A DNA stretch of 64,000 nt from Escherichia coli (GTDB lineage: Bacteria > Pseudomonadota > Gammaproteobacteria > Enterobacterales > Enterobacteriaceae). Under the pieces are notes generated by a model, which was not told the DNA's origin, made no database searches, and saw only the letters and a list, made by a program, of their open reading frames with translations. Where the stretch lies: NCBI RefSeq assembly GCF_016026235.1, contig NZ_CP065613.1, one strand, 5' to 3'. Within the stretch, counting starts at the first letter, position 1, and each line of letters opens with the position of its first letter. Made by a program: the position numbers and the translations under genes. Of the stretch, positions 37,713 to 40,340 are shown one piece after another.

Positions 37713-40340
37713 TTATTCTTCTTCTGGCTCGTCGTCAACGTCCACTTCCGGAGCGATTTCATCGTCCCCTTCCGCGGCACTGCCATCGATGGTATCCAGA
37801 TCTTCCTCGTCAACCGGTTCAGCAACACGTTGCAGACCCACTACGTTTTCATCTTCCGCAGTACGGATGAGGATCACGCCCTGGGTGTTACGGCCTACGA
37901 TGCTGATTTCCGAAACGCGAGTACGTACCAGCGTACCGGCATCGGTGATCATCATGATCTGGTCGCAGTCATCTACCTGTACCGCGCCAACAACTAAACC
38001 GTTACGTTCGGTAACCTTGATGGAGATAACCCCTTTCGTCGCACGCGACTTGGTTGGGTATTCCGCCACTGCGGTACGTTTACCGTAACCGTTTTGCGTT
38101 GCGGTGAGGATTGCGCCATCGCCACGAGGCACGATCAGAGAGACGACTTTATCGCCTTCACCTAAGCGAATACCGCGAACACCGGTGGTGTTGCAGCCCA
38201 TCGCACGGACAGAAGACTCTTTAAAGCGCACCACTTTACCTTCAGCGGAGAACAGCATTACTTCGTCTTCGCCGCTGGTCAGGTCAACGCCGATCAGCTC
38301 ATCGCCGTCAACCAGTTTGATCGCCACTTTACCGGCGGTACGCAGACGGTTGAACTCGGTGAGGACAGTTTTCTTCACGGTACCGTTAGCGGTCGCCATG
38401 AAGACTTTCACGCCTTCTTCAAACTCGGTCACGGGCAGGATCGCAGTGATACGTTCGTCCTGCTCCAGCGGCAGCAGGTTGACGATCGGACGACCGCGCG
38501 CGCCACGAGTGGCTTCCGGCAACTGATAAACTTTCATCGAATAGACGCGACCACGGCTGGAGAAGCACAGAATATGGTCGTGAGTGTTCGCCACCAGCAG
38601 TCGGTCGATAAAGTCTTCTTCTTTAATACGTGCGGCAGATTTACCTTTCCCGCCACGACGCTGCGCTTCGTATTCAGAAAGCGGCTGATACTTAACGTAG
38701 CCCTGGTGAGAGAGCGTCACTACCACATCTTCCTGAGTGATCAGATCTTCCAGGTTGATGTCTGCGCTGTTGGCGGTGATTTCAGTACGACGTTTGTCAC
38801 CGAACTGTTCACGAACCAGCTCCAGCTCTTCACGGATCACTTCCATCAAACGATCGGCGCTACCAAGAATACGCAACAGTTCCGCGATCTGATCCAGCAG
38901 CTCTTTGTATTCGTCGAGCAGTTTTTCGTGCTCAAGGCCGGTCAGTTTCTGCAAACGCAGATCCAGAATCGCCTGAGCTTGCTGTTCGGTCAGGTAGTAC
39001 AGACCATCACGCACGCCGAACTCTGGCTCCAGCCATTCCGGACGCGCAGCATCGTCGCCAGCACGTTCGAGCATCGCGGCAACGTTGCCCAGCTGCCACG
39101 GATTAGCAACCAGCGCAGTTTTCGCTTCTGCAGGCGTCGGCGCATGACGGATCAGTTCGATGATCGGGTCGATGTTCGCCAGCGCCACGGCTAATGCTTC
39201 AAGGATATGAGCACGATCGCGAGCTTTACGCAGTTCGAAAATAGTACGACGGGTCACCACTTCACGGCGGTGACGAACAAACGCCGCGATGATGTCTTTC
39301 AGGTTCATGATCTTCGGCTGACCATGGTGCAATGCCACCATGTTGATACCGAAAGAAACCTGCAACTGGGTCTGGGAGTAGAGGTTGTTGAGCACAACTT
39401 CACCGACCGCATCGCGTTTCACTTCAATCACGATGCGCATACCGTCTTTGTCAGACTCGTCACGCAGCGCGCTGATGCCTTCCACGCGTTTTTCTTTTAC
39501 CAGTTCCGCAATCTTCTCGATCAGGCGCGCTTTGTTTACCTGATACGGAATTTCGTGGACGATAATGGTTTCACGACCGGTTTTGGCGTCAACTTCCACT
39601 TCTGCGCGAGCGCGGATATACACCTTGCCGCGACCGGTACGGTAAGCTTCTTCAATACCGCGACGACCGTTAATGATTGCCGCCGTCGGGAAGTCCGGCC
39701 CCGGGATGTGTTCCATCAGCCCTTCAATGCTGATGTCTTCATCATCGATATACGCCAGACAACCGTTGATGACTTCCGTCAGGTTGTGCGGCGGGATGTT
39801 GGTTGCCATACCTACGGCGATACCGGAAGAACCGTTCACCAGCAGGTTAGGAATTTTGGTTGGCATGACGTCGGGAATTTTTTCCGTGCCGTCATAGTTA
39901 TCAACAAAATCGACCGTCTCTTTTTCGAGATCGGCCATCAGTTCATGGGCAATTTTCGCCAGACGGATTTCCGTATAACGCATTGCCGCCGCAGAGTCGC
40001 CGTCGATGGAACCGAAGTTACCCTGACCGTCTACCAGCATGTAACGCAGCGAGAATGGCTGCGCCATACGGACGATCGTGTCATAAACCGCCGAGTCACC
40101 ATGGGGATGGTATTTACCGATTACGTCACCAACGACACGGGCAGATTTTTTATAGGCTTTGTTCCAGTCATTGCCTAGTACGTTCATGGCGTAAAGTACG
40201 CGACGGTGTACCGGCTTCAGGCCATCTCGGACATCTGGCAGCGCACGGCCAACAATGACCGACATCGCATAATCCAGATAGGAGCTCTTCAGCTCTTCCT
40301 CAATGTTGACCGGTGTAATTTCTCTCGCAAGGTCGCTCAT
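37713..40340 (-). CDS. gyrA: DNA gyrase subunit A (875 aa)
   Basis: Full-length match to E. coli GyrA ([18 protein letters not shown]..., active-site region, acidic tail); QRDR reads S83, D87. Confidence 0.98.

Follow-up and report, generated by a model that had tools for sequence, protein, structure and literature searches.

Wild-type codons 83 and 87 in the gyrA gene of a 64-kb stretch of Escherichia coli DNA

Within DNA gyrase, GyrA is the subunit that carries out breakage and reunion of DNA. In E. coli, quinolones act primarily on this enzyme, and high-level resistance without a change in gyrA is unusual. A gyrA gene within a sequenced stretch of E. coli DNA thus raises the question of whether it carries the target-site substitutions that are associated with fluoroquinolone resistance, above all at Ser83 and Asp87. 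The stretch analysed here, referred to as the window, is 64 kb long. An earlier note on this DNA had claimed that codon 83 reads TCG (Ser) and codon 87 reads GAC (Asp), counted from a gyrA start at position 40340, and that the common resistance substitutions are absent. An answer depends on the identity of the gene and the numbering of its codons, on the codons themselves, and on how far a wild-type gyrA speaks for the susceptibility of the strain.

Identity of the gene and its surroundings

The coding sequence of DNA gyrase subunit A lies on the minus strand at 37713..40340 and comprises 875 codons and a stop, as given by the open reading frame (ORF) list, the translation and the profile matches. 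Reverse-complement reading of 39980..40460, together with the ORF list, places the ATG at 40340 and the end of the ORF at 37713; the start from which the earlier note had counted is thus the first base of the 875-codon frame. Against the NCBIfam gyrA equivalog TIGR01063 (cut-off 877) the translation reaches 1310 bits, and against NF004043 (cut-off 902) 1258.6; the first of these scores, taken with the direct reading of the codons, leaves chance no part in the observation. Pfam PF00521 (type IIA topoisomerase A-subunit, breakage-reunion domain) spans residues 32-507, and the gyrase C-terminal blades of PF03989 match in six stretches, the number of a six-bladed β-pinwheel. Arg121 is followed by Tyr122 (codon 122, 39975..39977, minus strand), the catalytic tyrosine of E. 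coli GyrA. The GyrA box QRRGGKG is read at residues 560-566 (38643..38663, minus strand); the motif sets gyrase apart and is not known from ParC (topoisomerase IV). Solved E. coli GyrA chains match the protein from end to end (e.g., 6rks chain A, residues 1-875). The gene therefore carries every testable defining feature of GyrA. Supercoiling activity together with GyrB would be expected of the product, judging by its identity to the K-12 protein and by the solved E. coli gyrase structures.

The closest relatives of the gene are known alleles of gyrA. The 875-aa product is identical to GyrA of K-12 MG1655 (b2231, NP_416734.1), and the 14 base differences between the two genes are all synonymous, falling in codons 85, 91, 100, 111, 145, 156, 198, 468, 498, 535, 540, 636, 815 and 852. 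The gyrA gene of E. coli FDAARGOS_943 (WP_001281242.1) is 100% identical at the nucleotide level (2,628/2,628 bases).

A misassignment would matter most if the gene were the paralogue parC, which encodes topoisomerase IV subunit A, since both the numbering of the codons and their meaning would then differ. Matches of ParC models to the N-terminal domain do occur, TIGR01062 parC_Gneg, for example, reaching 580.3 bits, but this score remains below the cut-off of 628.9 and covers that domain only, whereas TIGR01063 gyrA exceeds its own cut-off by a wide margin. The GyrA box, the identity of the protein to K-12 GyrA, the annotation of the identical DNA as gyrA in RefSeq and the position of the gene next to ubiG and yfaA, as for K-12 gyrA, all argue in the same direction. 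On the basis of the model scores, the GyrA box, the synteny and the identity to K-12, we rejected a parC identity, the probability of which is practically nil.

The surroundings of gyrA are likewise those of K-12 MG1655. The gene order yfaA-gyrA-ubiG-yfaL is kept: gyrA has yfaA as its neighbour in one direction and ubiG, followed by yfaL, in the other. The divergent gyrA-ubiG intergenic region (40341..40486, 146 bp) holds the predicted gyrA promoter, including a TGTTATAAT element, and is base for base the same as in K-12; a change in the promoter or leader that would affect gyrA expression was ruled out by this identity. On the plus strand, the ORF listing gives ubiG as 40439-41209 (256 aa), whereas the annotated K-12 start, located by its first 30 bases, falls at 40487 and yields the usual 240-aa protein. 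Two further plus-strand ORFs, 39207..40178 (323 aa) and 38574..39194 (206 aa), lie opposite gyrA in antisense orientation, the first of them spanning the QRDR (quinolone-resistance-determining region); both were treated as mechanical by-products of listing ORFs inside a conserved gene.

The gene is also nearly universal in its species, being present at ≥95% DNA identity in 5,425 of 5,426 complete E. coli genomes. In this set, gyrA is without a match in one genome and has two places in at least one; in addition, one of its matches falls on a record that bears a plasmid label. These missing, doubled or plasmid-labelled copies are probably oddities of assembly or labelling.

Codons 83 and 87 and the quinolone-resistance-determining region

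With the start at 40340, codon n runs on the minus strand from 40340-3(n-1) down to 40340-3(n-1)-2, and codons 83-87 accordingly occupy 40080..40094, where they read TCG GCG GTT TAT GAC (Ser83, Ala84, Val85, Tyr86 and Asp87). Codon 83 (40092..40094) is TCG and encodes Ser; a single base change would turn it into TTG (Leu) or TGG (Trp). Codon 87 (40080..40082) is GAC and encodes Asp, with AAC (Asn), GGC (Gly) and TAC (Tyr) each a single base change away. Such closeness of TCG and GAC to the common resistance codons is a textbook property of every wild-type E. coli. The 11-residue motif around the two codons corresponds to residues 78-88. A walk along the codons of the minus strand bore out what the earlier note had read at both positions, and a second reading again gave Ser and Asp, with neither Leu nor Trp at 83 and none of Asn, Gly or Tyr at 87. 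In a codon-level alignment to the reference gene, K-12 MG1655 likewise has TCG and GAC.

The reading can be extended from these two codons to the whole region and then to the whole protein. The QRDR comprises GyrA residues 67-106 (PMC9953508), and all 40 of the corresponding codons in the window (40023..40142, minus strand) encode the K-12 residues. Within the region only silent differences from K-12 occur, namely GTT in place of GTC at codon 85, CGT in place of CGC at codon 91 and TAC in place of TAT at codon 100. The genotype is that of a wild-type QRDR in every respect. Resistance can also arise from rarer gyrA substitutions away from codons 83 and 87, and such a change would leave the reading of those two codons intact while altering its meaning. 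The rarer sites Ala51, Ala67, Gly81, Asp82, Ala84, Gln106, Ala119 and Ala196 were read singly and all are unchanged. Moreover, the protein agrees with K-12 GyrA at 875/875 residues, so that the wild-type state extends beyond 83 and 87 to all resistance positions in gyrA, and a rarer substitution of this kind is exceedingly improbable. The absence of the common fluoroquinolone-resistance substitutions from gyrA, as the earlier note had it, accordingly widens to all 875 residues. It is almost certain that 40080..40094 holds codons 83-87 of chromosomal E. coli gyrA in its ancestral, drug-sensitive form, and no feature of the sequence speaks against this.

The sequence could nevertheless conceal a resistant allele, either because the sequenced population was mixed (heteroresistance) or because a true mutation was reverted during assembly or polishing. 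A consensus sequence is blind to minority alleles in the sequenced population, but neither gyrA nor the window as a whole contains an ambiguous base, and the gene is identical to that of an independently sequenced genome. A hidden mixture or reversion is therefore very improbable, and the wild-type reading of the gene is retained.

The two residues matter because of the way in which the drug is held. The fluoroquinolone binds the enzyme-DNA cleavage complex through an Mg2+ ion held by its keto acid. In this arrangement, the C3/C4 keto acid of the drug chelates a non-catalytic Mg2+, and two of the waters coordinated by this ion are linked by hydrogen bonds to Ser83 and Asp87, creating a water-metal ion bridge. 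Ser83 and Asp87 are the anchors of this bridge, and S83L and D87N/Y are the commonest resistance changes in E. coli (PMC9917921); they are the commonest because they take the anchors away. Since both anchors are present in the window and the protein is that of K-12, the enzyme employed in experiments of this kind, its gyrase should, on the published biochemistry, bind quinolones normally.

Allele frequencies and resistance outside gyrA

The place of the window's allele among those of the species was assessed by a census of 5,425 complete gyrA-bearing E. coli genomes, using six 63-base probes that cover codons 70-90 and counting exact matches alone (the ≥99% identity band). The wild-type segment was found in 2,650 genomes (49%, a lower bound given the restriction to exact matches), 2,011 of them with GTT and 639 with GTC at codon 85. 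S83L alone was found in 484 genomes (9%; 412 with GTT85 and 72 with GTC85), and S83L together with D87N in 1,702 (31%; 1,371 and 331, respectively). The remaining 589 genomes (11%) were matched by none of the six probes; these may carry other alleles (D87G/Y, S83W/A) or extra synonymous changes. Wild type is thus the single most frequent state among the 5,425 genomes, even though clinical isolates are probably over-represented in the collection.

The gyrA fragment from E. coli strain 4/1-1 (WP_001281226.1), which was picked for matching the double-mutant probe, served as a positive control. In contrast to the window, codon 83 of this fluoroquinolone-resistant allele is TTG (Leu) and codon 87 is AAC (Asn), yet the two genes have the same synonymous bases at codons 85, 91, 100 and 111 (GTT, CGT, TAC and TCC). 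The GTT85 background, which is that of the window's QRDR, carries most of the S83L+D87N double mutants (1,371 versus 331 on GTC85). There is only a slight chance that this excess reflects more than a few resistant lineages expanding clonally, or that the strain is quinolone-non-susceptible via loci outside the window.

The gyrA gene adds no target-site fluoroquinolone resistance in this strain. This result establishes that gyrA is free of target mutations; it does not establish that the strain is phenotypically susceptible. The gene alone is no proof of susceptibility because further determinants that could raise the minimal inhibitory concentration lie outside the window: the target genes parC, parE and gyrB, the plasmid genes qnr, aac(6')-Ib-cr, qepA and oqxAB, and the efflux regulators marR, acrR and soxR. 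Were susceptibility to fluoroquinolones reduced by a route other than gyrA (qnr, aac(6')-Ib-cr, qepA, oqxAB-type efflux, parC or gyrB), the wild-type gyrA would be a misleading predictor. The 64-kb window covers only part of the possible determinants, which leaves room for such a route; against it, the window is without an acquired resistance gene and, three breaks apart (see below), runs collinear with ordinary E. coli chromosomal sequence. Non-gyrA mechanisms usually lead to low-level increases only. Overall, we regard reduced susceptibility through these routes as unlikely, though the likeliest of the alternatives considered here, and a gyrA that is wild type throughout remains our reading of the locus.

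This finding is ordinary and in substance already known, since the gene encodes the reference form of one of the best-studied bacterial genes. Its value is purely practical and lies in a correct genotype call for resistance prediction.

Other features of the window

At approximately 98-99% identity, the ccmH...yfaU chromosome segment of E. coli 19SZHZ869Rt is collinear with the window. The collinearity is broken in three places, by an IS1, by an IS4 and by about 290 bases near 62.7-63.0 kb. No acquired quinolone-resistance gene was found within the window, and the three breaks are not resistance genes. The last of them, at 62736-63027, consists of about 290 bases without a megablast match to 19SZHZ869Rt, at which the coordinates of the comparator overlap (28887, then 28877); in a putative mapping by the 19SZHZ869Rt annotation, it corresponds to the rpnE/yfaU junction. 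At the rcsC-yfaP junction (28013-28286), yfaP follows directly after rcsC with no ato genes in between, as in 19SZHZ869Rt, whereas other E. coli genomes carry atoS there, along with more ato genes.

The window has intact copies of several genes for which K-12 or the comparator genomes have pseudogenes. The alpha-2-macroglobulin-family gene equivalent to yfaS (30718-35337, minus strand) is an intact ORF of 1539 aa, whereas yfaS is a pseudogene in K-12. The autotransporter gene yfaL (41350-45102, minus strand) is likewise an intact ORF, of 1250 aa, in contrast to the frameshifted yfaL of 19SZHZ869Rt and to FDAARGOS_943, in which the yfaL flanking the identical gyrA is an N-terminally truncated pseudogene. 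Finally, an ORF for a LysR-family regulator (54054-54932, plus strand, 292 aa) is intact, whereas the gene is annotated as frameshifted in 19SZHZ869Rt. The C-terminus of this ORF matches NCBIfam PRK09729, a 68-aa model described only as a hypothetical protein, and we take the ORF and PRK09729 to correspond to the yfaH remnant on the K-12 map.

Two insertion elements complete the picture. A complete IS1 of 768 bp occupies 45135..45902, in the intergenic region between yfaL and nrdA, with terminal inverted repeats and a flanking 9-bp direct target duplication, TAAGACGGC; it is located upstream of nrdA, approximately 670 bp from the start of that gene at 46575, and is missing from the otherwise collinear 19SZHZ869Rt. 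An IS4-family element of 1,425 bp (52315..53739), bounded by 18-bp terminal inverted repeats and by a 12-bp target duplication, CACCAGCAGACC (flanks 52303-52314 and 53740-53751), splits an MFS transporter gene that is annotated as intact, at 1,191 bp, in 19SZHZ869Rt. The transposase of this IS4 element is probably inactive, because its frame is split in two (183 and 325 codons). When the element and one copy of the duplication were removed in silico, a single stop-free stretch of 435 codons was restored across the MFS transporter gene.
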